Shown: piece by piece, positions 574 to 58,569 of the stretch
How the letters are laid out: every line of letters begins with the position of its first letter
Position numbering within the stretch: the first letter of the stretch is position 1
Source: a virus
Lineage: Duplodnaviria > Caudoviricetes
Reading direction: 5' to 3' (one strand)
Length of the DNA: 59,388 bases
IMG/VR virus record: IMGVR_UViG_3300043159_000017
Location: 1 to 59,388 of that record
The notes under the pieces: model-generated
Told to the model about the DNA's origin: nothing
Databases searched by the model: none
Seen by the model: only the letters and a program-made list of their open reading frames with translations
Program-made: the position numbers and the translations under genes

Positions 574-885
574 CTAGGTTTTCGCCACCACCAGGCCGAT
601 GCCACGGCGCAGCTCGTCGATCCATTTCTCGTGCATGTCGAGGCGGCTTTCCTGCACCGCCAGCGCGGTCAGCACGTCGCCGAGCTTCTTGATCTCGGTC
701 TTGAGTTCCGCAATTTCGATGGCCTGGCGCTCGGCGGCTTTGTTCTGGTTCTCGATCGACAGCGTGATGACGGTGTGCGTCTTGCCGAGCCGGTAGGCGA
801 CGCCGAGGCCGCCGCCCAGGATGGCGAAGATCTCGATGATGTGCAGGACGTCGGGGAGGGTGAGCACGAAGCCTTCGATCTGCAT
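574..885 (-). CDS. Phage membrane protein (TM + coiled coil), lysis-module associated
   Basis: N-terminal TM helix then coiled coil; GAGGAG RBS; last gene of the late operon. Confidence 0.65.
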   Translation of the reverse strand: MQIEGFVLTLPDVLHIIEIFAILGGGLGVAYRLGKTHTVITLSIENQNKAAERQAIEIAELKTEIKKLGDVLTALAVQESRLDMHEKWIDELRRGIGLVVAKT

Positions 886-940
886 TGGGAGCTCCTCGGC
901 GGCCGGCTCCGATCACCGGTCACTGGTCACTGGTGACTGC

Positions 941-1546
941 CTACGGCAGCTTGAACAGGCCGAGCGCGCCGCCGGACAGCACGGCGCCGACGAGGGTGGC
1001 GATGTTGCGCTGGCTTGCCTGCAAGGTCGGGGCGCAGGCGATCGACAGGTCGGAATTGGGCTGCAGCTCATTGATCAGTTCCGACGCCAGTTCGGCCGTG
1101 GTGACGACGTGCGGATCGGGCTTGGAGAGCGGCGCCTGGCCGGCCGGGCACGCGTTCGGCGTCGGCGCGCTCGCGCCGGGGGCAAGCGGCCCGCACAGCG
1201 GCTGCTGCTGGGCGGTGAGCAGCTTCACCCAGGCGTCCCAGCACGGCATGGTGATCGTGTTGTTGGTCGCGTGCGCGCGCGCCGACGCGTAGGTGAAGTC
1301 GGCCAGCAGCTTGGCGAGCACGTCGTCGTTGAGCTTCTCGAGCAGGTTGCCGGCGCCGTCCTGGTTGACCGTCCCGTCCGCATTGCGGCAGCCCGGCAGG
1401 AGGTTCGCCGGGTCGCAGGGGAAGCCGTGCGTGGTGACGCCTTGTACGGGCACGGCGGGCGCGGCGGGGCGCGCCCTGCCCTGCCCGAGCGCCGGCGATG
1501 CCGCGAGCGCGAGCGCGGCGATCGTGATCGGGATGAAGCGGTTCAT
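941..1546 (-). CDS. Secreted hypothetical protein
   Basis: Start re-assigned to MNRFIPITIAALALAASPALG (signal peptide, AGGAG RBS, ATGA overlap with upstream gene). Confidence 0.65.
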   Translation of the reverse strand: MNRFIPITIAALALAASPALGQGRARPAAPAVPVQGVTTHGFPCDPANLLPGCRNADGTVNQDGAGNLLEKLNDDVLAKLLADFTYASARAHATNNTITMPCWDAWVKLLTAQQQPLCGPLAPGASAPTPNACPAGQAPLSKPDPHVVTTAELASELINELQPNSDLSIACAPTLQASQRNIATLVGAVLSGGALGLFKLP

Positions 1547-1980
1547 CTGTCTTGCTCCTGTGAACAGCGGCGCAGGCCTGAGGCCGCGCCGGGCATGATT
1601 TTCAGATTGCGGGTGAGGCCGCCGTGGCGGGCGAGCCAGGCGCGCACCGCCGGCGGATAGTGCGCCATCAGGTAGGCCGTACCCTCGGGACTGTCGCGGC
1701 CGTAAGTGAAGCCTGATGCGTCGCGCGGCTCGTAGGCCCGGTGGAAGCCGAACCTCGCGCCGGGCGTCACGCACACGTGCGGCAGGCCCAGCACCAGGGT
1801 GCAGGCGGAGATGCAGGTCCCGGCCACGACGATCTGCTCGCCGCGCCGGGCGATGGCGGCGTAGCGGTCGGCATATTCCCCAAGATTGCCGCCGTGGTCC
1901 TCATAGATGACGAGGGCGGAGGCCGGCGCGGCCAGCGCCAGCCATAAGACGGCGGCGAGAGCGCGCGTCATTGGCATCAC
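1543..1980 (-). CDS. Secreted protein with ClpP/crotonase-like CxSAC motif
   Basis: Signal peptide, DHGG..., GTCISACTLVL, FGFH motifs resemble a rhizobial hypothetical family. Confidence 0.6.
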   Translation of the reverse strand: MMPMTRALAAVLWLALAAPASALVIYEDHGGNLGEYADRYAAIARRGEQIVVAGTCISACTLVLGLPHVCVTPGARFGFHRAYEPRDASGFTYGRDSPEGTAYLMAHYPPAVRAWLARHGGLTRNLKIMPGAASGLRRCSQEQDR

Positions 1981-2198
1981 CCCATGATGAAGAGCGCGAC
2001 CGCCGCGATCGCGTTAGATGCGAAGAACGCGATGAGCGCGTAGGGGGTAAGATCGTCGGCCGCGTCGTGGCAGACGTTGCGCAGCGGCGGGCATGACCAG
2101 ATTGGCAACCTGTCGCCGGCGCGCATCACGGCCGCCCACACGGCAACCGCGATGCCGACCGGGATCAGCGCCAGCAGCTTGAACACGGCGGCGCTCAC
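1977..2198 (-). CDS. Small two-TM membrane protein
   Basis: GTG start overlapping the holin stop; two hydrophobic segments. Confidence 0.5.
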   Translation of the reverse strand: MSAAVFKLLALIPVGIAVAVWAAVMRAGDRLPIWSCPPLRNVCHDAADDLTPYALIAFFASNAIAAVALFIMG

Positions 2199-2422
2199 GC
2201 GGCCGGCGGCGCAGGGGCGGCCGGGGCGGCAGGCTTGTCCTTCGCCTTCGAGCCGGCGCTTGAGCCCCAGATGTAGCCGACGACGATCATCACGACGTTG
2301 TCGAGGCTGGCGTCGGTCTGAAACTTGAGGAACTTCATCGCCAGCCAGGCGAGGAGGATAAGCGCGCCCAGGATGTTGGGCACGTCGAGAAACTTCTTCA
2401 CGGCGTCCTTGAGCGAGTCCAT
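2195..2422 (-). CDS. Putative holin
   Basis: 75 aa, two TM segments, YxWGSSAGS motif, near endolysin. Confidence 0.65.
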   Translation of the reverse strand: MDSLKDAVKKFLDVPNILGALILLAWLAMKFLKFQTDASLDNVVMIVVGYIWGSSAGSKAKDKPAAPAAPAPPAA

Positions 2423-2526
2423 GCGTCTGCTCCGTTGATGAAGTTGTCAGTCCGAACCTGCAGCGGCGGCCGCCCGCGTCCGCGCATGCGAAACCGGTCG
2501 CCATAGGCGGCCTTCGGCCGCCGTTC

Positions 2527-3066
2527 TTATGGTTGGAAGAACGCCGACGCTGAGCGTCGGCTATGCGCTGGCGGCAAAATCGTAAGGCGCACGGCGAACA
2601 CGCCGGCGCCGAGCTTGCCCAGCGCCCGCGCGGCGCCGCGCGAGAGGTCGATGATGCGGCCGGCGACGTAGGGCCCGCGGTCGTTGATGCGCACGATTAC
2701 GCATGGCGCCTGCGTCGCGGACTGCGCTCGCCGACGCAGGCGCGGGCCTGCTGCCGCGCATACGCGCACGCGCGTGCCGAACGGCAGGCGGCGATGCGCG
2801 GCAGTCAGCCCGTCGGGGCGGAAGCGCTCGCCCGATGCGGTGAGCCGGCCGTGCGCGTACCAGCTCGCTTTACCGCTCTCGGCGTGCGCGACGCTCGCGG
2901 TGAGCGCGAGCAGGAGCAGCGCGAGCGCCGTTCCCCGGATGCGGCGCAGCGTGGAGCAAAAGCGGAACGGTGCGCCGCTGATCCGGGGTCCACCTGTCGC
3001 CCCTGGACCCCGGGTCTGCGTCGCAACACTTCGTGTTGCGCCGCGCCCGGGGAACGAGACGCGCAT
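2527..3066 (-). CDS. rlpA: RlpA-family (DPBB) lytic transglycosylase with repeat-derived insertions
   Basis: [38 protein letters not shown] motifs. Confidence 0.85.
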
Positions 3067-3738
3067 CAGACGATGCTGGTATTCAGCGCCCCGCCGGCCC
3101 AGGCCGCGCGCAGCGCGTCATCGGTCCCGTCGAAGGCGTTCAGATCGGCGCCGTTCTCCAGCCCCGGGGCGGTGTGCGGCAGGGGTCCGACGCCGTCGCC
3201 GGTGTACTGGAGCAAGGTCCAATCGGCCCACGGCGCCGGCACGCGGATGTGCTTCTTGAGGTCGGCAAGCTCGATCGCGCCGAGGCCGGTCTTGTACTGG
3301 CACAGCCACAGCGGCCGCGCCTTGAAATAATCCGCGGCGGCGGAGCTGGCGTGCGCCAGCGGACTGATGTGCTCGAAGACGCGGTTGCCGGCCGGTCGCG
3401 TCCTCGACGAACCGCATGAAGTCGTAGGCCTGCAGCCCGGACATCGGCGAATGCGGATTGTCCTCGAAGTCGAGGCACAGCAGCGTCGCCGCGTCCGGCT
3501 GCGCCACGGCGAGGAAGTGCTTGGCGTGCGCCTGCGGATCGTCGCCGGTCGCGAACGAATAGGCGCCCCACTTCAAGCCCGCGGCGAGCGCCAGCGGGCG
3601 CCGGTGCGCATATTGGTCGTCGGTCATGCCGACGCCTTGCGTCGCCTTGTGGATGACGCCGACCCCGCCGGAGGCGGCGAACTTGGCGAAGTCGACGGGA
3701 TTGAAGTGCGCCATGTCGGCGACGACGGGACGGATCAT
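3066..3738 (-). pseudogene. GH25 muramidase endolysin, frameshifted near 3390
   Basis: HKATQG, GAYSF, LDFEDN motifs in the first frame; C-half (GNRVFEH...LWLCQY...WTLLQYTGDG...DLNAFDG) continues in another frame to TGA at 3066. Confidence 0.85.
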
Positions 3739-3751
3739 GCGGACGCTCCTT

Positions 3752-3871
3752 GTAGGGTGGGCAAAGGCGCGTTAGCGCCGTGCCCACGCGGTTTAATTTG
3801 TTTGGTGGAAGCGAAGACGTGGGCACGCGCCTGACGGCGCTTTGCCCACCCTACGGGCTAATGCGCCCTAC
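3752..3871. repeat. GTAG-family REP doublet
   Basis: GTAGGGTGGGCAAAG...CTTTGCCCACCCTAC inverted pair. Confidence 0.85.
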
Positions 3872-4128
3872 TTGCTCAGCCCATGTTCTTTGATCCACGC
3901 CGCCTGGCAGCGCAGCGAGATCGAGAACTTGTGCTCGCCCATGCAATCGCGGATGCGGGCACCGTCGCGCGCGGCATATTCCTTCGGGCACAGCCGGCGC
4001 ACGTCGCCGTCGCAGGCGCGGCGAATGGCGGGCGAGGCGTCCTGCGGATGCGCGGGACGCGGGATCGCCAGGATGGCAAGCGTCGCGATGACCACGAGCC
4101 AGATGAGCGGCTGAAGCTGCCAGTGCAT
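3868..4128 (-). CDS. Secreted cysteine-rich small protein
   Basis: Signal peptide; ACxxDVRRLC...CM...IS.RC pattern. Confidence 0.7.
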   Translation of the reverse strand: MHWQLQPLIWLVVIATLAILAIPRPAHPQDASPAIRRACDGDVRRLCPKEYAARDGARIRDCMGEHKFSISLRCQAAWIKEHGLSK

Positions 4129-4139
4129 GGAGAATTTCC

Positions 4140-4250
4140 GTAGGGTGCATTAGCGCCGCAGGCGCGTAATGCACCTCTTGTGTTGTTTGACTTGTGTTGT
4201 CCGTGAGGGAACCCGGCGCAATACGCGGCTGCGCCGCTATTGCGCCCTAC
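4140..4250. repeat. GTAG-family REP doublet
   Basis: GTAGGGTGCATTAG...TATTGCGCCCTAC. Confidence 0.85.
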
Positions 4251-4711
4251 GTATTCGGCGGTGGCGCGAAGAAACACCGCCGCGAGCCGTCCGGGCGCTT
4301 GCAGCGCCAGTAGGCGCCGTCCGGCGAGGGCTGCGCCTCGGCATAGGGCACGATCTCGGCGCGCACGTGCTCCTGCCCGTCGTCCTCGGTTTGTTTGACG
4401 ACGACGTGGTAGCCGTCCGCGCGCGCGGAAACCTGTTCGCTCGGCAGCACGAAGCAGTCGCCTTCCCCGCAGCACCATTCGCCGGCGGCGTTGCGCAAAG
4501 CCCCGCGCGAGATCCAGCTGTCGTGCGCGTCGAGGCTCGCCGCGAGGAACAACCAGATAGCGAAGGCGAGGACGAGCAAGCCGATGATGGCCGGCCAGGG
4601 AGCGGCGAATAGCGAGTACCCCCGGGTCGAAGAGCCCGGGGGGAGTAGTGAAGCGTGCCCGCTGTTCTTTCTATTCGCTATTCGCCATTCGCTATTCGCG
4701 GACGTCTTCAC
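4247..4711 (-). CDS. Cys-containing exported phage protein with repeat-derived N-terminus
   Basis: TM/signal then HDSW...WCCGEGDC...SPDG.YWRC...CFF; N-terminal ANSEWRIANRK comes from a heptamer repeat. Confidence 0.7.
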   Translation of the reverse strand: MKTSANSEWRIANRKNSGHASLLPPGSSTRGYSLFAAPWPAIIGLLVLAFAIWLFLAASLDAHDSWISRGALRNAAGEWCCGEGDCFVLPSEQVSARADGYHVVVKQTEDDGQEHVRAEIVPYAEAQPSPDGAYWRCKRPDGSRRCFFAPPPNT

Positions 4712-5355
4712 TCCTCACTCCATTCCACAAACACATTGAGCACCGTGCCGCCCGGCATCGTCGCGCCGTTGAGGTTGAGGTAGAGGCCTTCGGCCGCGGA
4801 ATTGAGCACGATCGATTTGTCGTTGACCGTGCCGAAGTCGAACTCGACCGGCACCGCGGCACCGCCCGAGCCGGCGGTGGAGAGGTTGATCTGTTGCGCC
4901 CGGATCGCGCCGACGAGCGTCCCGGCGGTAGGCGCGGCAGCGAAGCTCGAGGCGGCGGCGGTCGCGGCGCCGTCGTTCGAATCGTGGCTCACCGCGGTGA
5001 GCGCGGTCGGGGTGCCGCCGGAATCCGCGCTCGAGCGCTTGAGGAGCTGCACGTCGAGCTGGTTCGCCGCCGCCGCCCGTCCCGACACGGCGAAGCGCAG
5101 CACCCGCACTTGTTTGCTCGCCGACCCGACGATGCCGACGATGTCCTGGGGCGTGGCGTAGGGCGAATAGGCGATGACCGCGGCCGAATAGGTCGGCTTG
5201 CGGCCTTCCGCGTTCGACATCTGCGCCCCGGTCTTGTCGAGCGAGACGACCTGCATCGAGGTCGCCGCAAAGGCCGGATAGGCGGTGCCGTAGACTTGGC
5301 CCATCTGCGGCTCGCCGGTGCCCTGCCCTTGGGTAATCACTCGTCCAGCTTCCAT
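4708..5355 (-). CDS. Putative virion structural protein
   Basis: Ala/Gly/Thr-rich beta-type sequence ending VEWSEE; AGGAG RBS; in late operon. Confidence 0.6.
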   Translation of the reverse strand: MEAGRVITQGQGTGEPQMGQVYGTAYPAFAATSMQVVSLDKTGAQMSNAEGRKPTYSAAVIAYSPYATPQDIVGIVGSASKQVRVLRFAVSGRAAAANQLDVQLLKRSSADSGGTPTALTAVSHDSNDGAATAAASSFAAAPTAGTLVGAIRAQQINLSTAGSGGAAVPVEFDFGTVNDKSIVLNSAAEGLYLNLNGATMPGGTVLNVFVEWSEE

Positions 5356-5601
5356 TTCGGTTTCTCCTGCCGCGTTTTTTCCGTTGCGCCCTCGCCGGCG
5401 CGCTTGGTTCACGACGCGCCGGCAGCGGGCGCCGCTGTCGCAAGTTTGGACTGTCGATTGCGACGGCTTATCCCTCCCTCTTGCGGGGAGGGTGGTCGCC
5501 GAAGGCGACCGGCTGGGGGTCGTTGTTTGTTAGCGGTCGCCGTGCGACACTGAACTACCGAAGGCGTCAGCGACCTGTGCAGAGAGCCTTGGCGGAACGC
5601 G

Positions 5602-5784
5602 ATGAAACGGCCGAATAAGAAAGACGAAGTGCGCACTTGGCGCGCGTCGCTGATCAAGAGCCGAGCGGAATATCTCGGCCTCGTCCGCGCAACGGATCGG
5701 AAAGCGGCCGAAGCGGCCGCCATCGAGCAGTTCAACCTGACCGCTGAGCAGCAAAAGCGGCTAGTGCTACAGGAACAGTTGTGA
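5602..5784 (+). CDS. Small hypothetical protein (60 aa)
   Basis: YLGLVRA.D...A...AIEQF; a paralogous remnant lies at 47059-47181. Confidence 0.7.
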   Translation: MKRPNKKDEVRTWRASLIKSRAEYLGLVRATDRKAAEAAAIEQFNLTAEQQKRLVLQEQL

Positions 5785-5953
5785 CCAAACCCGCTTGCTT
5801 CGCTTCGGCGCAATACGCTTCGCTATTGCGCCCTACGGCCCTGATCCGAAAAACGCCCTCCGCCCGTTTAAGTCGCGGTTGAAATAAAGGAGCGTTGTGG
5901 TATTAGATGGCTGCAGGCTCGCTGAGAAATAGGCGAGCGCAGCGGGGCGGCCT

Positions 5954-7111
5954 ATGGACTCACCGTCGGAGGCGAGCATTCGATCAGCTACAGCGCCGCA
6001 GTTGCGTTTTCACCCACTGAAAGCGTTCATATTTCAGCTTGTGGTTTTGCTTTTCGCATCACTCTTGGCCACAATCGTATTCGCCTATATTGAGGATGGA
6101 CCGGAGTTGTCGCTTGGCAGTATTTTATTTGTTTTTAGGCGCAATTCAATTAATAACTTGGCTATTACGCTAGCTTTCTTCTGGGGTATATGGTGGTCTT
6201 TGCTCAAGCTAGCTCCAAGCGCGCTATCTTGGCTCCTTCCGTTCAAGCACTCGCCCCCGGGCATCCAAGCGAGCCGGCCGGAAGACGGGGCGGGTTTGGA
6301 AATTGGCGATCCGATCCGCACAGAAAAGCTAGAAGTCCTCAGAACGATAGACCAACGCATCGAGCGCCTAAGAGGAACAACATTGGCTTTCCTTTTCGGA
6401 ATAGCGCTTTCTTTGATTACTGGAGCTTTTGTGATTATTTTTGCTGGAAGGTTGACGAGTTTGGACGCCTCGGCGGTGAGCAACGTGGACAGAATTAAAT
6501 CTGACTTGGCAGATGAAAGCCGCAGGCTTTCTCGACTATACCAATACCAGAGCCTCTTTACTCAGATTGACACCGCAAAGAATGCCCAGGCACCGAAAGA
6601 CACTCTAGATAAGTTGGACCGTCAAGTGGCAACCTTGCAAGATCTGGTAACCCCCTCCCCGCCCGATCTAGCAACTTCGAAAACACTCATTGCCGATGAA
6701 AAAGAACTGATCACAAATATACACAAACTGCTGGACGCAGCGTGGACGAAGGAGCTTAGTTCGGATCGCGGTTACAATGATTGGCATTATATAGCGGCGA
6801 CGGCCATAACGCGCGTCGGCGTGGTGCTCATCATCGTATACTTGGTTCAAATACTGATGGGTCTATATAGGTACAATACGCGTCTAATTTCGTACTATAG
6901 CTCGCGTCGTGATCTGCTTGTTCTATGGGACGGGAAGCAACGCGGTTTGAAGCCTCTTGATGAGATGCTGGCTTCGTCCCAGATTGACTTCGGGAAGGAG
7001 CCGAAGCACCCACTTGAAGATTTGTTCAAGGCGCTAGGAAGCAAGGTAGATTCGATTATTTCGGGACGTAAGGCAGCCGCTACGGGCAAACAGGAAGTCC
7101 CTTCGCCATAA
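5954..7111 (+). CDS. Low-GC multi-TM/coiled-coil membrane protein (moron)
   Basis: 385 aa, about four TM segments, AT-richer than flanks, opposite strand. Confidence 0.8.
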   Translation: MDSPSEASIRSATAPQLRFHPLKAFIFQLVVLLFASLLATIVFAYIEDGPELSLGSILFVFRRNSINNLAITLAFFWGIWWSLLKLAPSALSWLLPFKHSPPGIQASRPEDGAGLEIGDPIRTEKLEVLRTIDQRIERLRGTTLAFLFGIALSLITGAFVIIFAGRLTSLDASAVSNVDRIKSDLADESRRLSRLYQYQSLFTQIDTAKNAQAPKDTLDKLDRQVATLQDLVTPSPPDLATSKTLIADEKELITNIHKLLDAAWTKELSSDRGYNDWHYIAATAITRVGVVLIIVYLVQILMGLYRYNTRLISYYSSRRDLLVLWDGKQRGLKPLDEMLASSQIDFGKEPKHPLEDLFKALGSKVDSIISGRKAAATGKQEVPSP

Positions 7112-7202
7112 TAGTCGTGTGCAGGGCAATACACGCTAGGTGTCCGATTCCGATAGCGGAAACCCGCCGTCGCATCCGTCGCAGTGGCGTCGGACTCATC
7201 CC

Positions 7203-7706
7203 CTACTCCGCCCTGGCGAACTCGCCGTATAGCTCGTGCGCGGCGGCGGCGTATGCTTCGTGCGCGGCCTCAGCCGTCGCGTGCCGGCCGAGAAAATAGG
7301 CTCGCCCGTCCTTCCAAATCCGCGCGATCCATTTTCCCGTTTGTCGATCAAAGCGGACGCCTTTAAATCCCGACGTGTTGTTGCGGTGACGCCGTCGATT
7401 GGCGCTGTTGTGGGAAAACGTCGCCAGTCGCAGGTTGTCCCAGCGGTTGTTCGTGGGGTCGCGGTCGCGGTGATCTATCATCGGCCGGCCCCACTCGCCC
7501 TTCATGTATAGCCACGCGAGCTGGTGAGCGGTGTACGTGCGGCCGTCGATACGGATGCACCGATATCGGTGACTGAGCGAACCGGCGAGGTCGCCGATTT
7601 GAAAAGCGGAGCTCACCCGTTGCAGCCAGCGAAACTCCCCGGTCTCGGGGTCGTAGTGCAAAACCTCACGCAGCCTCTCCGGCGTGAGTCGCGGGCGGGT
7701 TCTCAT
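7203..7706 (-). CDS. HNH endonuclease with C-terminal AP2 domain
   Basis: AHQLAWLY, IDHRDRDPTNNRWDNLRLAT, NTSGFKGV, W.ARI...LGRH.TAEAA..AY. Confidence 0.9.
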   Translation of the reverse strand: MRTRPRLTPERLREVLHYDPETGEFRWLQRVSSAFQIGDLAGSLSHRYRCIRIDGRTYTAHQLAWLYMKGEWGRPMIDHRDRDPTNNRWDNLRLATFSHNSANRRRHRNNTSGFKGVRFDRQTGKWIARIWKDGRAYFLGRHATAEAAHEAYAAAAHELYGEFARAE

Positions 7707-7771
7707 CGGTGTCTTGCAAAAATAGAAAAGGGCCGCGGGCGGCCCTTGGCGGACGCCGGATGCGGCTCGGG

Positions 7772-7954
7772 TCAGGCGGTGGGCGCGAGCGCCGGCTTGG
7801 GCGCGTTTGGCGGGTTTGGCGGCGCGATCGAACCGGCGATGCCCGGCGTTTGTTTGCTCGCCGCCTTGGCGAGCGCCAGGAAGCTGTTCGCCTTGCGCCG
7901 CATCGGCGCCGGGTCGGACGCTTGCAGCGCCTTGCGCCGGAAGAGTTGCGTCAT
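7772..7954 (-). CDS. Small basic hypothetical protein
   Basis: MTQLFRRKA... start immediately after the upstream stop. Confidence 0.45.
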   Translation of the reverse strand: MTQLFRRKALQASDPAPMRRKANSFLALAKAASKQTPGIAGSIAPPNPPNAPKPALAPTA

Positions 7955-7955
7955 C

Positions 7956-8993: not shown

Positions 8994-8994
8994 G

Positions 8995-50356: not shown

Positions 50357-52138
50357 TTACGCATCCGGATGCACCGGCGGCTCCCACTCCGCCCGCTCCC
50401 ACTTGCTGGCCGCGACCGGCTGCATGTCGTAGATGCGCGAGCAGGCGTCGATCAGGTCGTCGTGCGGGGCGAACGGGAAGAACAGCGCCTCCTCGATGAA
50501 GGCGCGGGTGAGGTCGTAGCCGTTGCGGTCCTCGTCGAGCCGCTTGATCGGGCGGACGATGCGATAGAACTCGCCGGAGGCCTCGCAGGCGCGCTGCAGC
50601 TTCGTCGGGCCAAGGAGGGGGGTGTAGACGATCTGCCCCGCCTTGAACGAGGCCTCCGGTGAATCCGTGCCGGCGCGGGCCGCATCGGCGTCGCTCCACA
50701 CGCGCCAAGTGGCCTTGCCGATGGGGCCGCCGAAGTCGGGGTGATGCACCACCGCCGGCAGCAGAAACTTGCCCGCGCGCAGATCCGGCTCGAGCCGCTC
50801 GACCCGGTCGGGCTTGGAATGGGCGGAGCCGTCGCGCGGGAAATTGAGCTCCTCGATGGGGAACCAGGTGCGGTCGCGCTGCTGCCACTCCGCGATCACC
50901 TCGACGTCGACCATGGCGCCGTAGCGCTCGTAGCCGACGCGGCACGACTGCACGCCCGGCTGCGTGCTCCAGTAGCCGTAGAGCTGCTTGAGGAACCGGT
51001 AGCGCTCGGAGAGCTTCATGCGGTGGCGCACGCCGTCGAGCAGATACTTGTTGCCGGCGGTGTCGACCCCGATCACCGCGATCGCGGTGCGGTCCGAGCG
51101 CGCGGTGCGGCTGCCCTTCGACGGGTCGCACAGGATGTAGACGTTGAGACATGTCGGCCGCACCTCATAGCCGGTGAGCCATTCGGCGCGGAACACCGCG
51201 ACGTTGCCGGCGCGCGGGTCGAGCAGCATCTGCGCCGACACGGTCGAGCGCTGCGCCGACTTGATCTCCTCCCACCGTTCGGCCGAGAGCAAAACGGGCC
51301 TGCCCTTGAGCGTGCCGTCGTCGGTCGCCGGATGGATGCGCGGCTCGAGCACGCCGCGCTCGAGGATGATCCCGTAGGTGTCGCCGAAATGATAGCGCGT
51401 GCCGGCGTGCCACTTGCGCACGCCCTCGGCCTTGCCGAGGTTGTCGGACAGCTCCCAGCGGTCGGTGGTTTTCTTGATCTGCTCCGGGGAACCGACGCTC
51501 TCGACCGTCACCACGTCGTCGTAAACCAGGAGGCCGTAGTGGCGCGAGGTGGGCTGGCCGTCGACGAGGCCGTGCGCCTCGATCGTCGCCTCCTTGGGAT
51601 TGGACATCCGCTTGACGACGATGCCTTCGTTCTCCGACCACTTGGGCGCCTCGCGCGCCGGCTCGCGCCACAGCACGTCGGGGAAGAGCGTCTTCAGATA
51701 ATCGTTGCTCTCCAGCTCGCGCTTGATCTGCACCAGGAAGGCCTTGGCGATCGGCTTGGTGTGGGAAAAAATCGCCACGGTCAGATCGGGGTCGCTCAAG
51801 ACTTCCTGGATGACGCCGGCAAAGGTGATGATGGTCGACTTGTAGTGATAGCGGCTCCACAGATCCAGATGGCCGTCGGGCGCGCGCTCGACCTCGCGGC
51901 AGCGCTCGAACAGCCACGGGTGCTTCACGTCGAGGCGGCCGAGCGGGCCGGAGAGAAGAAAATAGCGGTCGTTGCAGGCGAGGAAGGCGCGTTCGCGGGC
52001 GGTCAGCGCGCCGACGTGGGCGCCATACCAGGCGCGCGTGCGCTCGAAATCGAGGTAGGGCAGCTCGTCCGTCAGCTGCGCGCGGAGCCACCCGGCTTCA
52101 TCGGTGAGATAGCGCGCGCCGCGGAGCGGAGGGATCAT
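50357..52138 (-). CDS. terL: Terminase large subunit
   Basis: SRYHYKST Walker A variant, LLVYDD Walker B, GTRY, YILCDPS and HDDLIDA RNase H motifs. Confidence 0.92.
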   Translation of the reverse strand: MIPPLRGARYLTDEAGWLRAQLTDELPYLDFERTRAWYGAHVGALTARERAFLACNDRYFLLSGPLGRLDVKHPWLFERCREVERAPDGHLDLWSRYHYKSTIITFAGVIQEVLSDPDLTVAIFSHTKPIAKAFLVQIKRELESNDYLKTLFPDVLWREPAREAPKWSENEGIVVKRMSNPKEATIEAHGLVDGQPTSRHYGLLVYDDVVTVESVGSPEQIKKTTDRWELSDNLGKAEGVRKWHAGTRYHFGDTYGIILERGVLEPRIHPATDDGTLKGRPVLLSAERWEEIKSAQRSTVSAQMLLDPRAGNVAVFRAEWLTGYEVRPTCLNVYILCDPSKGSRTARSDRTAIAVIGVDTAGNKYLLDGVRHRMKLSERYRFLKQLYGYWSTQPGVQSCRVGYERYGAMVDVEVIAEWQQRDRTWFPIEELNFPRDGSAHSKPDRVERLEPDLRAGKFLLPAVVHHPDFGGPIGKATWRVWSDADAARAGTDSPEASFKAGQIVYTPLLGPTKLQRACEASGEFYRIVRPIKRLDEDRNGYDLTRAFIEEALFFPFAPHDDLIDACSRIYDMQPVAASKWERAEWEPPVHPDA

Positions 52139-52343
52139 CTTTGCTTCGGTCCCCCTCCCCCCATTCGCGCAGCGAATGGCGGGGAGGGGTTAGGGGTGGG
52201 GGGTGCTTGCAACGAAATCACACGGAAGAAAAATCCCCCCACCCGGCGCCGCTGCGCGGCGCCACCCTCCCCGCCAACGGGCGGGAGGGTTGGAGCAAGC
52301 TTGGTCTCCGTCTTTCGCTGAAGCGTCGGTAGGTGTGCACGCG

Positions 52344-52757
52344 CTAGTCGCTTCGCGAGGGAGGGATGACCGGAGAGGACCACGCGGCAATCGCGTTCGC
52401 CAGCGGGTCCGCCGGGCGCGGCCGCGCGGGCGCGATCTCGTTGGCCTCGAGCACCGCGACATCGATCAGGGCGGCGCGCTTGTGCAGGCCTTCGATCGCC
52501 TGCACGAACGCGGCGGCCGACTTGTCGAAAAAGGCGGCGACCTTGTCGGGAGCGGCGTGCAGGGTCTTGGCGCCGTCGCGCAACAGCGCATCGGCCGCGC
52601 AGGCGACGGCGGCGAGCAGCTTGCGGCCGGCGCGGCGCGCGAGATCGGGGTCATCGAGCGCCTCGCACGCCGCCATCGCGGCGTCGAGTCTTGCCAAACA
52701 TTCGCGCAGCGCCGCGTCATCAGCTGCCGCAGCCATATCGCTTGTTTTATGGGCCAT
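52344..52757 (-). CDS. Helical protein in the terminase small subunit position
   Basis: Directly upstream of terL; no clear TerS motif. Confidence 0.5.
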   Translation of the reverse strand: MAHKTSDMAAAADDAALRECLARLDAAMAACEALDDPDLARRAGRKLLAAVACAADALLRDGAKTLHAAPDKVAAFFDKSAAAFVQAIEGLHKRAALIDVAVLEANEIAPARPRPADPLANAIAAWSSPVIPPSRSD

Positions 52758-52842
52758 AAATTCGACCTCGGCGGTGGAAAGGGCTTTGTCGCGGCACATG
52801 CTGCAGCTACAATTTCTCATGGCATGGGGAGAGGGTTAGCGC

Positions 52843-53391
52843 ATGTTCATGCCGGGGCGACGCATGGCGTCCGCGGCATGGGGGCGGCTTGCTGTGGTGC
52901 TGACAGGGGCGGCAGCCTTGTTTGGCTGCGCGGGCGTGAGCAACGGCTCCAATTTTCCGGCGGTGGTGCACAACGCCGGCGCGCCTGCGGCAGGCATGTC
53001 GCGCGTGGTGCTTTACCCAACGCGCGACGCCGACGCCACGACGCTGCAGCTTGACGGGGTCCTGGTCGGACGGCTCAAGCCCGGCACGTTCACGTATCGT
53101 GACGTTCCCGCCGGCGGTCATGAGTTAGTCGCGGAACCTCCGGCGATGGGCAGGCTGGAACGGTACGCGTTCGGCACCTCCGTCGGGCAAACGTATTATC
53201 TCAAGGTCGATGCGACGGACTTTGCCAAGTGGAACCATGAAGCGGCGGGAGCCAGCGCTCTGGGCGGGGCAGCCGGTCCTTACATGATCAGGCCTCGCCC
53301 CGAAGACGGCACTTCGCTGTTCAAGTTTGTGAACGTCAACGCTGCAACGGCCGCGCGGGAGCTGGCCGACATGATCTTACTGTCGAATTAA
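52843..53391 (+). CDS. Lipoprotein, DUF2846-like
   Basis: LFGC lipobox; LDG..VG.L.PG.F.Y.DVPAG.H; GQTYY. Confidence 0.75.
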   Translation: MFMPGRRMASAAWGRLAVVLTGAAALFGCAGVSNGSNFPAVVHNAGAPAAGMSRVVLYPTRDADATTLQLDGVLVGRLKPGTFTYRDVPAGGHELVAEPPAMGRLERYAFGTSVGQTYYLKVDATDFAKWNHEAAGASALGGAAGPYMIRPRPEDGTSLFKFVNVNAATAARELADMILLSN

Positions 53392-53419
53392 ATGATGGAA
53401 CTCCACAAAATGCTGGAGC

Positions 53420-54058
53420 GGCACCCTGCATTTCGGAAGCTCGCAGGTTTGCCGGCGCCCGTCAAACGGGGTGCGTCAGTTTGGCACAAAAGCGCCGACA
53501 AGTGCCGCGGCGCAAACGGGATTTTCTCTTTGTTAATCGCGCTCTGTTAAGAGCACAGGCGCGAGACAGGGGCGCGCGCATGCGCGCGAAGGGGGAACCA
53601 TGTTCAAGATCAAGGCCGCCTTGGCCGCCGCACTGGTCGCGGCGCCCGTCATATGGGCGGGGGCTTCACTCGTGTCGAATCGTGCCGCCGAACAGGCGGA
53701 GCCGGCCACGGCGGATCAGGTCGACACGTTCCAATTGATGTCGGCTTCGCAGCGGCTGCCGATGCATTCGTACGCCGCCTACTGATCGGCGTAACCGGGC
53801 AATCAGAACCAGCGTTGTTATTACTTTTTGTTGTCCGATTCCTGCGCGTGGCACCGTGCATTTCGGAAGCTCGCAGATTGGCGGGCGACCGTCAAACGGG
53901 GTGCGTCAGTTTGGCCCAGGGCGGGAGCCGGTGGGTCATCAGCAATCGGGAACAGCGCCGTTATTACTTTTCGTCGTCTGATTCCTGCGAGTGGCACCGT
54001 GCATTTCGGAAGCTCGCAGATTGGCCGGCGACCGTCAAACGGGGTGCGTCAGTTTGGC
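53420..54058. repeat. Three copies of a 66-bp direct repeat (53420-53485, 53850-53915, 53993-54058)
   Basis: GGCACC(C/G)TGCATTTCGGAAGCTCGCAG...CCGTCAAACGGGGTGCGTCAGTTTGGC. Confidence 0.9.
53600..53785 (+). CDS. Small secreted hypothetical protein
   Basis: Signal peptide; purine-rich RBS. Confidence 0.65.
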   Translation: MFKIKAALAAALVAAPVIWAGASLVSNRAAEQAEPATADQVDTFQLMSASQRLPMHSYAAY

Positions 54059-54126
54059 TCAGGGCAGACCGTATCCGTTTGTTAAATATTACGATCTTCG
54101 AATGGTCCGCCCCGGGAGAAAAGCCG

Positions 54127-54339
54127 ATGCCTGGCCCCACGGTCGCCGAACTTGACGAGCGCATTGCGGCAATCCGGCAGAATATCAACGACTTGGTCGA
54201 ACAGGCCGCCGCCTACTCGGGTGCCGAAGATGAAAACAGGGCGGCGGACCGGATCGCGCAGCAAGAGCAGGAGCTCGCAAGGCTCAATGAACTCCGAGAC
54301 GCTCTGTTGCGCCGGCCAGGAGCCGGTCATCAGCCATAG
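54127..54339 (+). CDS. Small coiled-coil protein
   Basis: MPGPTVAELDERIAAIRQNI..L.EQAAAYSGA.DE; GGAG RBS. Confidence 0.7.
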   Translation: MPGPTVAELDERIAAIRQNINDLVEQAAAYSGAEDENRAADRIAQQEQELARLNELRDALLRRPGAGHQP

Positions 54340-54625
54340 GGGGGATGACTTTTCTTCGAATCGTGGTCCCGCTCGACCTTATTGTTTGAGCATAATCTTT
54401 TCCGAAGACCGGTACCCACCCCGGATCCATGCCTGCCCCGGACTTTGATCCGGGGTCCAGGCCAGGCTTTTTCGGAATCATGCTCTCGGCAGAAAGCCAT
54501 CGGAAAAAACGCGGTGCCGGACCGCACCCAATGCTCCCGCTCGATCCGAACGCCGTGTCGTCGGAACCGAGGCAGCCCGGGTCGCACACCGCGACCTGCC
54601 ATCGCCTCCGACCGACGTCCGGTCG

Positions 54626-54886
54626 TCAAATATTCGGATCCTCGGCGTCATGCGCGCGGAGGATCGCCTCCCGCAGGCGATGATCGAGCTTGCCGCGGTT
54701 GAGGATCACCTTGTGGGAATGCACCGCCTCGATCGCGCCGAGCGGCACGACGAAGTCGCCCGCGTTCTCCACGTAAATCACCAGTTCGCGCCGGCCGCGC
54801 GGCGCCACCTGGCGCACGGCGCCGAACGCCTTTTCGCCGTCATGGGCGAAGACCTCGAACCCTTCGCGGATATCGTCCTGCGCCAT
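54626..54886 (-). CDS. Small PRC-barrel-like hypothetical protein
   Basis: IREG.EVF..DG...FGAVRQV...YVENAGDF.VP. Confidence 0.7.
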   Translation of the reverse strand: MAQDDIREGFEVFAHDGEKAFGAVRQVAPRGRRELVIYVENAGDFVVPLGAIEAVHSHKVILNRGKLDHRLREAILRAHDAEDPNI

Positions 54887-55091
54887 GCCCGCCTCGCAAC
54901 GAAGGAAGCCGCCGGTACCGAAGCCTTGCCGATTTGCGCCGGGGTGTCAAAGAAGCCGGCGCCGAATTCGACCGCGGCGTCGTTCGGGCCATTGCCCGGG
55001 CCACTCGCGCATGTCAGGGGAGCGAACCGCGCAATCGTCCAGTCGATAGCGAAGACGCATCGAGCTCGATTCGCGATCGATCCCAAAGACG

Positions 55092-55394
55092 CTAGACCCA
55101 ATTGCCCCATTTGTGTTCAATCCCTTCTTTTTCGCAAAACGCGCGGAATTCATCGACGGCACCGCTTCGATTGGAATATTTCTCGCGCATCAGCGCGAAC
55201 GCGAGTTTGGCAAGTGCCATGGCAGGAACATCGACCCAGAACTCGTAATCAGCGTCACCCCATATTTCCTCCGTGAGCTTGCCCATGTCCTGGGCCTCCA
55301 AACGGACCGAGCCGTCAGCGCTAACAGACAGGCGGACCGAGCGGAATTCAGTGCCTTCTTGACGGTATATTTCGGCAGAATAAGTGTCGTTCAT
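55092..55394 (-). CDS. Hypothetical protein
   Basis: GAGG RBS before MNDTYS; acidic 100 aa. Confidence 0.65.
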   Translation of the reverse strand: MNDTYSAEIYRQEGTEFRSVRLSVSADGSVRLEAQDMGKLTEEIWGDADYEFWVDVPAMALAKLAFALMREKYSNRSGAVDEFRAFCEKEGIEHKWGNWV

Positions 55395-55575
55395 TCCTCG
55401 CCCTCCCAAGGAAGTCCAAAATTCGCGTAACCGGCATTCCCCGCCGAAGCGGTGGTGGGCGGGAAAGTCCGGTCCCCGACATAGGCATTGCTCCTGGTAG
55501 CAATTATGCGTAAACTTCAATGACCGGTTGATCTAATCGATTCGGTCGACAGTTGCCGTCCTATGGGGTGGCGCC

Positions 55576-55773
55576 GTGCCGCTGACGCCGCGAGAGGTCG
55601 AAGTCTTAGGGTGGGTCGCGCGCGGCAGGACCGCCAAGGAAGTCGGCGTCATTCTCAGTATCACTAAACGAACCGTGGAAGCACATCTAGCAAACGCAAT
55701 CGTCAAGCTGGGAGCGTCGAACCGGGCTCATGCTATTGCAATTGCCATATCCTGCCAAATGATCTTGTTCTGA
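55576..55773 (+). CDS. Stand-alone LuxR-type HTH protein
   Basis: LTPREVEVL.WVARG.TAKEVG.IL.ITKRTVE.HL.N...KLG..NR. Confidence 0.85.
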   Translation: MPLTPREVEVLGWVARGRTAKEVGVILSITKRTVEAHLANAIVKLGASNRAHAIAIAISCQMILF

Positions 55774-55934
55774 AAAAGGGCCACTCTCAAATTCAAAAGG
55801 GGCCGGTGGGGGTTAAATGGGGCCAGTACCGAATCGAGACGTGCGCTAGAAACTATTGATTGGCGCATGTTCTTATCGGCGAACCGGTGCCCACCCCGGA
55901 TCAAGTCCGGGGCAGGCTTTCGCCGGAACATGCA

Positions 55935-56783
55935 CTATCGGCTGTTCCCGGCCCGCCGCTCGATCCAACCCTTGGCGAGCGCGGCCTGGACGATCGCGGC
56001 ATCGAGATCGGCGGCGGGCACTTGTCCGCGCGCCGCCGCGACGGCGTGACGAATGTCGCAACCGGCGCGATCGCGGCCGAAGCCGGTCAGGCCGCGGACG
56101 GTCGGATCGCCGGTATCGAGCTTGAACGCATCGACCGCGGCGCGGTTGTCGACGAACCACCGCGCCAGCAAATCGACGAGCGCCCCGGCGAGCGGGCCGG
56201 CATCGGCGGGCCGCCGCCCGACGCCCCGCGCCTTGCGCTCGCGCGGCGCGGCCGCGAAGCCGAACGACACCGCCAGATGCCGCAGCAGCAGCTGCAGGTC
56301 CTGGTGCAGCAGCGAATTGATCTCGCGGTCTTCCACGCAGACCGTGAACAGCGCGTTGCGCGCGGTCTCGGGAATGTGATCGACCAGGTGCTCATAGGCC
56401 CGCCGCGCCTGGCGGACCCGGCGCTCGAAGCGCTTGGCGAGATTGGCGTCGGCGCGCTCGTGCGCGTCGCGCGCAAAGCCGAAGCCGCGCTCGTAGGCGG
56501 GGCTCGCGCAGGTGCGCCGCGGCGCGCCGCTCAGCCGCTCGTAGCGGCCGACGATCTCGCCGACGCGGAAGCCGGCCTCGACCTCGGCGTCGGTGAGAAG
56601 CCCGAAGATCGACAGGCGGCCCAGCACCGTTCCGGCGTAGGGATGCGCCCCGCCCTTGACGGCGCCGTCCTTGATCCGCCGCCACAGGGTCGGCGCGCGC
56701 ACGTCGCCCTCGTCCGTGGGCTTGATCTTGCCGCCGGGATAGCGCTCGCCGGCAAGGCGCGGGCGGCCGGGATACCCGCCCAT
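55935..56783 (-). CDS. Putative late-gene regulator (Q-like position)
   Basis: GRPR..GER.P.G N-terminus, GT.LGRL...G.L...E.EAG; last early gene before the packaging region. Confidence 0.5.
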   Translation of the reverse strand: MGGYPGRPRLAGERYPGGKIKPTDEGDVRAPTLWRRIKDGAVKGGAHPYAGTVLGRLSIFGLLTDAEVEAGFRVGEIVGRYERLSGAPRRTCASPAYERGFGFARDAHERADANLAKRFERRVRQARRAYEHLVDHIPETARNALFTVCVEDREINSLLHQDLQLLLRHLAVSFGFAAAPRERKARGVGRRPADAGPLAGALVDLLARWFVDNRAAVDAFKLDTGDPTVRGLTGFGRDRAGCDIRHAVAAARGQVPAADLDAAIVQAALAKGWIERRAGNSR

Positions 56784-57112
56784 CAGGGCGCTCCGGCGGC
56801 CGGTTTCTTCCACACGTGGGCGCTCAGGCCGCTCCGGTTGCGGCGGCGCTCGCCGGTCTTCTCGATCAGGCCGGCGTGGAAGAGCTCGGAGACGCGCGGG
56901 CGGACCGCGAGGACGCTCTCATCGAGCGTCGCGGCGATCTCGTCGGCGGTCAGGCCGGACGGCGTCGCCGCCAGCACCTCGAGGACGAGACCGCGCAGGC
57001 GTTCCGTCTTGGCGAAATGCGTCCGCGTGGGACGGCGCCGGACTGCGCCGCCTTCGTGCGGCACGACGGACGTGGCGCCGGTCGCACGGCCATATGGGAC
57101 ATCCGACGCCAT
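56783..57112 (-). CDS. Winged-helix DNA-binding protein
   Basis: GLTADEIA..L....LAVRPRVSEL...GLI..TG.RR. Confidence 0.75.
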   Translation of the reverse strand: MASDVPYGRATGATSVVPHEGGAVRRRPTRTHFAKTERLRGLVLEVLAATPSGLTADEIAATLDESVLAVRPRVSELFHAGLIEKTGERRRNRSGLSAHVWKKPAAGAP

Positions 57113-57113
57113 G

Positions 57114-57473
57114 TCACCAAAACCGATCGCGGTCGCCGATCTCGGCGCACAATTCGGCGGGCGAGGAGGGACCCGAACGGCGCGGGGTCGGATGGAGCCG
57201 GCGGATGAGGCGGGCCGCGGGCGGCTTCGGCACCGGTCCCCTCGCCCGCTCGGTGCCGCGCGCTATTTCCCGCCGCACCGCGTCGCAAAACGCCCGGTCC
57301 ATGCGGATGAGCTCGACCCGGCTCCACGGCAAGGTCGCATCGCATTCATGCTGCGCGCGCACGTAAGTCCGCTTGTCCGGATTGCGTTCGAGATGGACGG
57401 CGTGGAACGGCACGCCGCGCGCTCGCGCCCGGCGGGCGTAGAAGCCGTGCGGTCTTCTCCGCTTAAGCGTCAT
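57114..57473 (-). CDS. Basic hypothetical early protein
   Basis: ATGA overlap with cro; co-oriented. Confidence 0.55.
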   Translation of the reverse strand: MTLKRRRPHGFYARRARARGVPFHAVHLERNPDKRTYVRAQHECDATLPWSRVELIRMDRAFCDAVRREIARGTERARGPVPKPPAARLIRRLHPTPRRSGPSSPAELCAEIGDRDRFW

Positions 57474-57769
57474 GACGCCTGACCTCCGTGGCGGTGGGCG
57501 GTTGCAGGTGAAGCGGCCTCCACCGGGACGTCGGCCGGCCGGCGCCAGAGATCCGGGCGCAGCACCGAGGCGGGCACCGCGCCGCCGGTGGCACGGTGAA
57601 TGGCAAGCGCAAGGCGCGGGGAGACTCGCCCGCCGATTTTGGCCTTCGAGATCGCCGCCTGGCTCACGCCGCAGGCTGCCGCGAGCTTCTGCTGCGTTTG
57701 CGTCAGCGCGATCGCGCGCGCGACGGCCGCGCCGACCGAAGGGAGATCGAAGGCTGGCTGTCCATCCAT
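57470..57769 (-). CDS. cro: Cro-like (YdaS-type) regulator
   Basis: Q.KLAAACGVSQAAIS....VSP..A..I..ATGG.V....LRPD; divergent from cI. Confidence 0.85.
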   Translation of the reverse strand: MDGQPAFDLPSVGAAVARAIALTQTQQKLAAACGVSQAAISKAKIGGRVSPRLALAIHRATGGAVPASVLRPDLWRRPADVPVEAASPATAHRHGGQAS

Positions 57770-57775
57770 GCCGCC

Positions 57776-57857
57776 ACTATAAACACCCAAAGTATTCCAT
57801 GTCAACACCAAAGGCATGCAGCGAATGACTTGCTTTCAATACAATCGGTGTTATAAG
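57776..57857. promoter_or_regulatory. Divergent promoters and three operators of the lysogeny switch
   Basis: Minus TTGACA-18-TATAGT; plus TTGCTT-16-TATAAG; AA(C/T)AC-N5-G(T/C)(A/G)T(T/G) at 57782, 57804, 57838. Confidence 0.7.
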
Positions 57858-57912
57858 CTCCGGTTATGCCGAGTCGCGCGCCCGCCGCGCAACGACCAAC
57901 CGGAGCGACGTC

Positions 57913-58569
57913 ATGAAAATAGGACAGAAGATCCGCCGCCGGCGGGAGGAGCTGAGGCTGAGCCAGGCCGACCTCGGCCGCCAGGTCGGCGTCTCCCAGG
58001 CGACGATCGACAAGATCGAGGCCGGGCAGACGGCGCGCTCGCGCTATCTGCCGTTGATCGCCGTCAAGCTCGGGCTGCCGCTCGAGGAAATCGATCCCGG
58101 CCTCGCGGCGCTCAGCGCCGCGGGAGCGCTCACCGGCCCGGTCATTCCCGGCATCGAACTCATCGGCGATCGCGATTTCCCGATCTACGCGTCGGCCGAG
58201 GGCGGCTCCGGCCAAATCGTCGTGTCGACGGACGCCGTCGACTTCATGCCGCGCCCGGCGCCGCTCGCCCACGTCAAGGGCGCCTATGGGCTCTACATAA
58301 CCGGCGAGTCCATGGTGCCCGAATTCGAGCCGGGCGACGTCGCCATGGTCAACCCGCACCTGCCGATCGTCGCCGACGTGACCTGCATCTTCTACGGCGA
58401 GCGGGACGGCGCGACCCGCGCCACCATCAAACGGCTGGTGCGCCAGACGCCCGACGTCTGGCACGTCAAGCAGTGGAACCCGCCGGAAGGCATGAAGGCG
58501 CAGTTCACCTTGTCGAGATCCGAATGGCAGCTATGCCACCGCACCCTGGGGAAATATTCGCGGCGATAG
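57913..58569 (+). CDS. cI: CI-like repressor (XRE HTH + S24 peptidase)
   Basis: LSQADLG..VGVSQATI.KIE.G; AEGG cleavage region; GESM serine; TIKRL lysine. Confidence 0.92.
   Translation: MKIGQKIRRRREELRLSQADLGRQVGVSQATIDKIEAGQTARSRYLPLIAVKLGLPLEEIDPGLAALSAAGALTGPVIPGIELIGDRDFPIYASAEGGSGQIVVSTDAVDFMPRPAPLAHVKGAYGLYITGESMVPEFEPGDVAMVNPHLPIVADVTCIFYGERDGATRATIKRLVRQTPDVWHVKQWNPPEGMKAQFTLSRSEWQLCHRTLGKYSRR

Follow-up and report, generated by a model that had tools for sequence, protein, structure and literature searches.

A podovirus-type provirus of soil Xanthobacteraceae that may have been grounded at one chromosomal site

The stretch of DNA analysed here (hereafter the window) comprises the 59,388 bases of the IMG/VR record IMGVR_UViG_3300043159_000017 in its entirety, which is classed as a provirus, estimated by CheckV to be 92% complete, and whose host is a soil member of the Xanthobacteraceae. 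From our point of view, and with about as much doubt as confidence, the window can be read as the provirus of a temperate SU10-type podovirus lineage that became grounded at one chromosomal site and has since been inherited vertically. Judging from the neighbouring genes, this site would lie beside a cluster of permease, nitrile-hydratase and cobalamin genes. It is a similarly even call that no recognisable genes for integration, recombination or replication have survived in the element, and that it keeps its switch, a late module under selection and a number of cargo islands, for which it serves as a landing pad.

Genes were called by their GC content at third codon positions and then scanned against the Pfam, PHROG and PADLOC family libraries. 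In the following, L denotes metagenome or genome stretches, G genomes, metagenome-assembled genomes (MAGs) or viral records, and C contigs (G406 is L107, G407 is L108, and L040 is G001:C332). Near the right-hand end of the window lies a regulatory switch with a short early cassette:

57913-58569, plus strand: cI-like repressor, 218 aa (HTH_3, 3.7e-10; Peptidase_S24, 1.6e-7; phrog_4)
57470-57817, minus strand: cro-like helix-turn-helix (HTH) regulator, divergent from cI (PF15943 YdaS, 5.9e-9; P22_Cro, 6.7e-4; phrog_35, 2.4e-18)
57114-57473, minus strand: p119, no Pfam or PHROG family
56783-57112, minus strand: winged helix-turn-helix (wHTH) protein, 109 aa (phrog_1123)
55935-56813, minus strand: p292, no Pfam or PHROG family

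The repressor combines an HTH with a LexA-type self-cleaving S24 domain, whose GESM serine motif is present in the sequence. In the family scans, none of the three open reading frames (ORFs) that follow cro (p119, wHTH and p292) matched a replication family. All 69 homologues of p292 are unnamed or labelled 'hypothetical', and its nearest Atlas clusters are mostly viral (score 0.90-0.91). Its AF2 model (pLDDT 71) found no match in the PDB by Foldseek at E<=0.001 and reached a best Z of 4.8 in the wide VIA search, and neither a single-sequence nor an alignment query found p292 in viral contigs. From its position, p292 could be the late-gene activator. The same layout, namely cI, cro-p119-(wHTH)-p292, 3-5 kb of variable host-like cargo, a 158-aa ORF and TerL, recurs in L056, L057, L058 and G001, with no match to wHTH in L057 and L058; on the strength of this recurrence, a short early region without recognisable replication genes is to be regarded as a trait of the lineage.

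When cI was used to search metagenome contigs, 57 loci were obtained, about 30 of them with a cI that is 87-94% identical and at least 20 also with parts of cro-p119-wHTH-p292. The same host genes follow beyond cI in L046, L050, L051 (a 474-kb contig), L056, L068 and G260:C241, in agreement with the long residence that an earlier, sequence-only note on this DNA had proposed. From their translations, these genes encode a 51-60-aa peptide, a permease of about 685 aa, a 109-aa protein (small109) and a ParA-like ATPase, followed by nitrile hydratase beta and alpha, a hydrolase and an Ldh_2-type dehydrogenase, and the 17 kb of G260:C241 carry these genes and, past them, others that look like cobalamin genes. 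Contigs of the MAG G260 match window positions 56128-59388 at 98-99%, with C241 being 99% identical over the last 338 bases (59051-59388), and its contig C4 is 95% identical to positions 3728-5266. The contig ends at 5266 and 56128 were considered as attachment sites and dropped, as they share no repeat and the MAG contigs are short. An exact 49-base pattern from the record end had no match among the metagenome contigs. In a search for empty sites among the 10 genomes of the genus, matches to the flank permease were limited to G260 and G305, and the G305 contig ends inside the gene.

Domains of tyrosine recombinases (PF00589), serine recombinases (PF00239) or rve (PF00665) were not found at E<=0.1 in the six frames of the window; run on 14 control genomes, the searches gave matches in 14, 13 and 8 of them, respectively. 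Translated ORFs in the 10-17 kb that follow cI were read by eye in six contigs, the 17 kb of G260:C241 among them, and revealed nothing recognisable as an integrase or replication gene, no family search having been made there. The window also contains no remnants of the recombination and primosomal genes of the relative G012. A functional lambdoid-type temperate prophage would have an integrase beside an attachment site at one end, replication genes after cro and intact lysis genes; of these, an integrase was seen neither in the record nor, by eye, past cI in G260:C241, L046, L051, L056 and L068, and the one recognisable muramidase is frameshifted. The earlier note had described a cI/cro switch, three genes after cro without a replication gene, and no integrase, and had suggested inspecting the flanks; each of these descriptions is borne out, and the inspection gave the same outcome on the right side.

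The genes for packaging and for the particle were found by families at the places that had been proposed for them:

52344-52820, minus strand: 158-aa ORF, small-terminase candidate by position only, matching no family
50357-52138, minus strand: TerL (phrog_38, 1.9e-39)
40234-42714, minus strand: portal (PF23899 SU10_portal, 1.8e-21)
35323-36636, minus strand: fibre (phrog_4492)
32214-33557, minus strand: scaffold candidate by position only, no family match
31077-32063, minus strand: capsid (phrog_1357)
22568-23476, minus strand: adaptor (PF24175 SU10_adaptor, 9.8e-12)
17282-19114, minus strand: 610-aa virion protein (phrog_3287, 7.8e-41)

The exception is the scaffold named in the earlier note, for which the ORF is present and the family support is not. 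The 158-aa ORF is kept upstream of TerL in G402-G404 and L056, and the 610-aa protein resembles proteins in phage records that are labelled 'stabilization protein' or 'needle head protein'. Since no tape-measure, tail tube or sheath family was found among the ORFs scanned, a short-tailed chassis is a fair reading, and together with the SU10 portal and adaptor families this gene content places the element in an SU10-type podovirus structural lineage, the earlier note having proposed a podovirus chassis. The likeness to Escherichia phage SU10 and its relatives lies in these common portal and adaptor families and holds at the level of profiles only. Among cultured phages, a megablast of 50 kb of the window against phage records returned nothing, and tblastn with TerL gave at most 27% identity.

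The late genes are under purifying selection. Against relatives at a synonymous divergence (dS) of 0.3-0.6, the ratio of non-synonymous to synonymous divergence (dN/dS) is 0.24-0.30 for TerL, 0.19-0.24 for the portal, 0.12-0.19 for the capsid and 0.19-0.25 for the 610-aa protein; the lowest value, 0.08-0.15, belongs to cI. Internal stops are absent from all late genes, and G001, G402-G404, L056, L058, L107 and L108 share with the window intact late ORFs of 300-826 codons. The dN/dS check proposed in the earlier note thus speaks for selection, with values of 0.12-0.30 for the late genes. The dS of genes of the element (cI 0.46-0.55, p292 0.37-0.62, TerL 0.31-0.55) lies close to that of the flank genes, which is 0.45-0.83 between G260 and the metagenome contigs. 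Four genomes with both TerL and small109 were compared, namely L056, L058, G001 and the window, for which G260 supplied the flank. Among their six pairs, divergence is highest in the three involving L058, and this applies to each of TerL, cI, p292 and small109, which fits a co-divergence of the element with its host flank, as far as substitutions in these genes can tell.

The prophage at about 45.9-97 kb of contig G012:C5 is the fullest relative that we compared (TerL 62%). From TerL through portal, fibre, scaffold candidate, capsid and adaptor to the 610-aa protein and the distal genes, its gene order is that of the window, and a p292 homologue lies upstream of the packaging genes. An integrase is not claimed for its 464-aa end ORF, which matches no Pfam or PHROG family. 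The remaining late genes of the window are as follows:

29865-43869, mainly minus strand: head module with fibres, syntenic with G012, G402-G404 and G001
42819-43869, minus strand: small ORFs of the head module
37036-37551, 36643-36921, 34171-35319 and 33698-34084, minus strand: ORFs of the head module
30602-31060, 30277-30489 and 29865-30251, minus strand: ORFs of the head module
38120-40141, plus strand: two conserved ORFs in the head module
23562-24116 and 20636-22480 (614 aa), minus strand: neck/tail ORFs within the neck-and-tail block 17282-24116
10829-11095, 10207-10926, 8995-10164 and 7956-8993, minus strand: distal late genes, possibly internal or ejection proteins, in synteny with G012, L107, L108 and G001
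7203-7706, minus strand: HNH-AP2 homing endonuclease (HNH_3 plus AP2; phrog_99, 8.1e-70)

The HNH gene was rejected as a packaging (cos) nuclease, as it is of the homing type with HNH_3 and AP2 and as its copy in G402 lies elsewhere. Similarity among the ORFs 4708-5412, 37036-37551 and 30602-31060, which would have indicated paralogy, was not significant. In relatives, the homologue of a 345-aa gene of the window is followed by an ORF of variable length (G012:C5 84383-96952, L021/L022; L107 11952-13199; L108 11954-13591; L040 5367-6695), and by eye its shorter forms have a nuclease-like module at the end.

The block from TerL to the distal genes measures about 43 kb in the window versus about 19 kb in G012:C5. 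Compared with relatives, of which the viral records G402-G404, L107 and L108 and the contigs of the MAG G001 are closer than G012, at least five cargo insertions cut the late genes, some of them on the opposite strand, so that the interleaved chromosomal-type cargo described in the earlier note is confirmed:

52843-55900: variable stretch from p292 to the packaging genes, contents differing in L056, L058 and L046
52843-53391, plus strand: DUF2846 lipoprotein (Pfam DUF2846)
53369-54065: three 124-nt repeats (D5, D12, D14), plus host dispersed repeats
near 54112-54339, plus strand: small coiled-coil ORF, kept in G402, G404 and L046
43860-50183: cargo island 1, absent from G012, with other content at this place in relatives; also holds two small membrane ORFs
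43860-45092, plus strand: DUF346-repeat protein (Pfam)
47598-50183, minus strand: 861-aa AAA/HSDR_N protein (AAA_22 and HSDR_N-like stretches; phrog_14719, 2.9e-74; GC about 0.50)
24130-29860, minus strand: cargo island 2, absent in G402, G403 and G404
26367-27467, minus strand: PDC-M71A kinase (PADLOC, 6.9e-94 over 15-359 of 366 aa)
24782-26374, minus strand: PDC-M71B TPR protein (PADLOC, 1.8e-111 over 1-461 of 530 aa)
28276-29560, minus strand: two ORFs of no named function, a second cassette in tandem with PDC-M71 in island 2
19132-20759, plus strand: two FkbM methyltransferase genes within the neck-and-tail block, no counterpart in G404 or L107
11100-17280, mixed strands: insertion relative to G012
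16599-17060 (plus), 15597-16091 (minus, XRE) and 14995-15510 (plus): trio of ORFs present in L107, L108 and G001
11328-14129, minus strand: 933-aa FG-GAP/RTX protein, not found in L107, L108 and G001

The PDC-M71 genes A and B are adjacent on the same strand, with a GC content of about 0.52, and would by their PADLOC matches constitute a candidate defence system; the 861-aa protein at 47598-50183 had no PADLOC match. In island 2, three copies (89-97% alike) of the last 100-300 bases of gene 29865-30251, each bounding a cassette, are found as repeats D2 and D7 (24163-24261, 27837-27935 and 29861-29959). Gene-end copies at two insertions suggest that cassettes may enter by recombination at gene ends, and the tandem cassettes of island 2 suggest that such entry may have been repeated at one gene end. 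The slot between TerL and the portal is variable, with relatives carrying other genes there, and a 109-nt direct repeat lies in or near island 1 (43648-43756 and 45137-45245). Stray copies of the C-terminal 30-48 codons of TerL, 73-80% identical to TerL of the window, occur downstream of TerL in the variable slot of relatives (G404:C1 4131-4274; G403, reverse complement, 3393-3536; G406:C1 1166-1255) and look like gene-end duplicates from cassette exchange.

With regard to the 933-aa protein, five tandem 147-nt units (11352-12239) encode its FG-GAP repeats, and paralogues of these repeats, 76-82% identical, are present on four G260 contigs. In L040, positions 124-2028 read in translation as a Kup-type potassium transporter that lies directly upstream of the homologue of 10829-11095. 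The Kup-type gene hence fills the slot of the 933-aa gene, and is either host-type cargo or a sign that the element is split in G001.

Two classes of repeats have to be distinguished. The heptad motif GCGAATA has 36 matches in the window versus 0.01 expected, and heptads and their complements form hairpins between late genes (stems of 28-30 bp, -48 to -62 kcal/mol, z -5.9 to -8.3):

448, 4605-4699, 10110-10228, 17067-17170, 24065-24144, 30507-30580, 34096-34201, 38138-38211 and 43549-43621: heptad hairpins

The motif also occurs in G404, G403, G402 and contig C97 of G001, with corresponding junctions mapped in G404, G402 and C97; the host flanks in L046, L051, L068 and G260:C241 hold 0 or 1 match, and there are 42 matches elsewhere in the host genome G001 and 20 in G100. 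Because of the orthologous junctions in viral contigs and the near absence from the flanks, we attribute the hairpins to the phage lineage and see in them no sign of recent invasion. The repeats that the earlier note had placed at the junctions are thus real, and its attribution of them to the host does not hold for the heptad hairpins. The hairpins are not followed by a U-run and match no Rfam family, and they might serve as sites of mRNA processing or stability. Dispersed repeats of 80-160 nt form the second class (2930-3058, 10649-10807, 14730-14834, 17166-17285, 40150-40231, 52146-52275, 54344-54427 and 55831-55940). They are multi-copy in the MAGs G001 and G260, where copies are 73-95% alike and the one at 54344-54427 is found on more than 20 contigs of G001, and look like host elements of the miniature inverted-repeat transposable element (MITE) or repetitive extragenic palindromic (REP) type inside the prophage.

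The first base of the record opens the ATG of an ORF, its last base is the GTG start of a minus-strand ORF, and no terminal repeat was found in the 59,388-base window. Its limits are therefore those of the provirus caller and not natural ends, and a complete phage genome was rejected on the same grounds and in view of the class of the record. The GC content is about 0.65-0.70 with three low-GC stretches, and the window contains no tRNA gene and no Rfam family. The following features lie towards its two edges:

1-7111, mixed strands: left arm, membership of the element uncertain
5954-7111, plus strand: low-GC membrane protein, extra compared with relatives
4708-5412 and 4247-4711: left-arm ORFs
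3118-3826, minus strand: GH25 muramidase, frameshifted (N-terminal half PF01183, 8.3e-13)
2527-3066, minus strand: DPBB/RlpA-like lytic transglycosylase (DPBB_1)
574-1980: small secreted or membrane ORFs
1-333, plus strand: ORF
58659-59159, plus strand: secreted 166-aa protein, no match in G001
59231-59388, minus strand: 51-aa membrane peptide, starting with GTG at the very end of the record

A number of findings weigh against a grounded and vertically inherited element. The window's own flanks lie outside the sequence on both sides, with the left flank unseen, and the names given to flank ORFs rest on reading translations. Because p119 and p292 have neither family nor fold, 'no replication gene' means none that is recognisable, and both could be unrecognised replication proteins. 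A shared flank would also be expected if an active phage re-integrated site-specifically, and in the test for co-divergence the six pairs are dependent, small109 is a short gene, and a GC content near 0.9 at third codon positions compresses dS. Relatives of TerL at E<=1e-10 are found in 4 of 401 genomes of the family (G001 89%, G097 69%, G012 62%, G100 47%), relatives of p292 in 9 of the 401 and in 2 of 10 species genomes of G260's genus. In G260, no late genes were detected at E<=1e-30, though both edges are present at 95-99%, in what is an incomplete 3.1-Mb MAG. In L051 and L068, p292 is followed by at least 8 kb of host-like genes without TerL in that stretch, and L050 has a truncated cassette with a fusion between cro and the p292 tail, again without TerL in the stretch; since these three keep cI without the late module nearby, retention of that module is not general. 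At the same locus, cI is intact and 89-90% identical in all three (L050 4388-5541, L051 8099-10657, L068 8148-10657), and the repressor seems to have been retained in its own right, perhaps because it provides immunity or acts as a regulator for the host. The GH25 muramidase, the only recognisable one, is frameshifted near codon 119, with its C-terminal half reading on in another frame, which may be genuine decay or come from the assembly; the DPBB lytic transglycosylase-like ORF is intact. Unlike the window, the G012 prophage carries RecT-like, exonuclease, NinB, DUF2303, MT-A70 and DUF1376 primosomal genes and a 4189-aa ORF and resides at another locus. The ORF after the homologue of the 345-aa gene, 4189 aa in G012, 415-545 aa in L107/L108 and 442 aa in G001, is absent from the window, where the 345-aa ORF matches both neighbours of its counterpart in L108.

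Part of this evidence would also be accommodated by a still-active temperate podovirus, whose initiator would be among p119, wHTH and p292, whose integration function would lie left of the record or be supplied by the host, and whose shared flank would reflect site-specific integration. We consider such a phage somewhat unlikely, yet it has much in its favour: the intact switch and late genes with a dN/dS of at most 0.30, related contigs that are classed as viral, the patchy spread across species genomes, the well-equipped G012 relative at its other locus, the mostly viral Atlas clusters nearest to p292 and the conservation of the heptad hairpins in the phage lineage. Near-identical sequence to window positions 1-10000 was moreover present in at least 20 soil runs of 19 studies among the matches listed. 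Logan contigs from four soil runs cover almost all bins of positions 1-20000, a depth of contigs that is blind to excision and copy number, and the joints in Logan contigs over this range, found only between repeats and with sides of at most 43 bases, are uninformative on mobility. Against an active phage stand the 59 kb without a recombinase or transposase domain and the lack of any recognised by eye over 10-17 kb beyond cI in six contigs, the direct abutment of cI on host DNA, the recurrence of the early region lacking replication genes in L056, L057, L058 and G001, the cI-only remnants at the same locus, a dS of the element that tracks that of the flank, the frameshifted lysin and a length that exceeds the estimated size of relatives by 5-12 kb. 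One could also think of a cryptic prophage in plain decay, in which selection keeps the repressor and the defence cargo, with the late genes simply still unbroken in this strain. The superior conservation of cI (dN/dS 0.08-0.15) and its survival in L050, L051 and L068, where the rest is gone, would suit this explanation, as would the broken GH25 gene, the missing counterpart of the 415-545-aa ORF of L107/L108 next to a 345-aa ORF that matches both its L108 neighbours, and a late operon that at least five insertions interrupt, part of them in opposite orientation. It is nevertheless a poor fit and improbable in our eyes, because neutral decay over a dS of 0.3-0.6 would have broken late ORFs of 300-826 codons, which are intact across relatives at a dN/dS of 0.12-0.30. 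The grounded provirus hence remains the reading that we adopt.

How such a grounded provirus might still produce particles can be sketched as follows. Upon DNA damage, RecA-assisted self-cleavage of cI would derepress the early operon, and the product of p292 and/or wHTH would turn on the late genes. Since the element, according to this proposal, would neither excise nor replicate, the terminase would package in place. Beginning at the terminase end, successive headfuls would take in the element and then the adjacent host chromosome, comparable to lateral transduction or PBSX-like particles. It is tempting, and in our estimation rather unlikely, that a soil Xanthobacteraceae clade keeps an SOS-triggered, podovirus-built particle system that packages the chromosome in place, be it a gene transfer agent (GTA) or a lateral-transduction device unrelated to RcGTA, with landing pads for defence cargo. 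A GTA- or PBSX-like role would be a subset of the grounded prophage, predicted as a possibility that we rate with the same reserve. The earlier note had gone further and seen an element kept for particles or gene transfer; nothing shows this, the late module being patchy, the switch of the SOS type and the lysin frameshifted. Among the outcomes that it had named as speaking against its proposal, neutral decay was not seen in the late genes and a patchy distribution was (TerL in 4 of 401 genomes).

PBSX of Bacillus, a member of the Firmicutes, is contractile-tailed and consists of a repressor-headed cluster of head, tail and lysis genes that is chromosomally fixed and has no replication or excision genes. 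The element in the window resembles it in the phage-type repressor that heads a particle-gene cluster, in the lack of recognisable replication and excision genes, in the fixed locus and, on the mechanism sketched above, in particles that would carry host DNA; it differs in its SU10-type podovirus chassis, its alphaproteobacterial host and its patchy retention. RcGTA is siphovirus-like, under the control of host regulators and broadly conserved, and agents of its kind package random host DNA in pieces smaller than the gene cluster. Both have a phage-derived cluster of structural genes in which replication and integration genes are not recognisable, what appears to be a conserved locus, and purifying selection, whereas the element in the window has a cI/cro SOS switch, is podovirus-like, occurs in few species genomes and has been lost in some close relatives. 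That a phage-type SOS switch and not host regulation heads the element argues against a GTA of the RcGTA kind. To our knowledge, the well-studied GTAs and PBSX-like elements are all built on long-tailed phages. None of the titles and abstracts found in a literature search describes a podovirus-derived GTA, which says nothing of the full texts, and one may be in print.

In this context, soybean Bradyrhizobium deserves attention, a genus that we take to belong to the same GTDB family as the host. A preprint describes spontaneously released podovirus-like particles with short tails and heads of about 60 nm from such bacteria, with host DNA flanking the prophage enriched in the particle DNA of two strains and with reads from S06B-Bj particles spread evenly over the genome, which its authors call reminiscent of GTAs, at a low DNA yield (bioRxiv 10.1101/2022.05.06.490963). 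No sequence link between these particles and the window was found, and TerL of the window shares at most 27% identity with any phage record.

Overall, a short-tailed GTA in common soil bacteria would, if true, widen the known routes of gene exchange and might explain the podovirus-like Bradyrhizobium particles that carry host DNA. On a more sober reading, the window is part of a series of one prophage at one site, ranging from the full element to cI only, and as such it provides material on how prophages become grounded, which of their genes selection keeps, here the repressor and the cargo, and how cargo cassettes come to lie between late genes.

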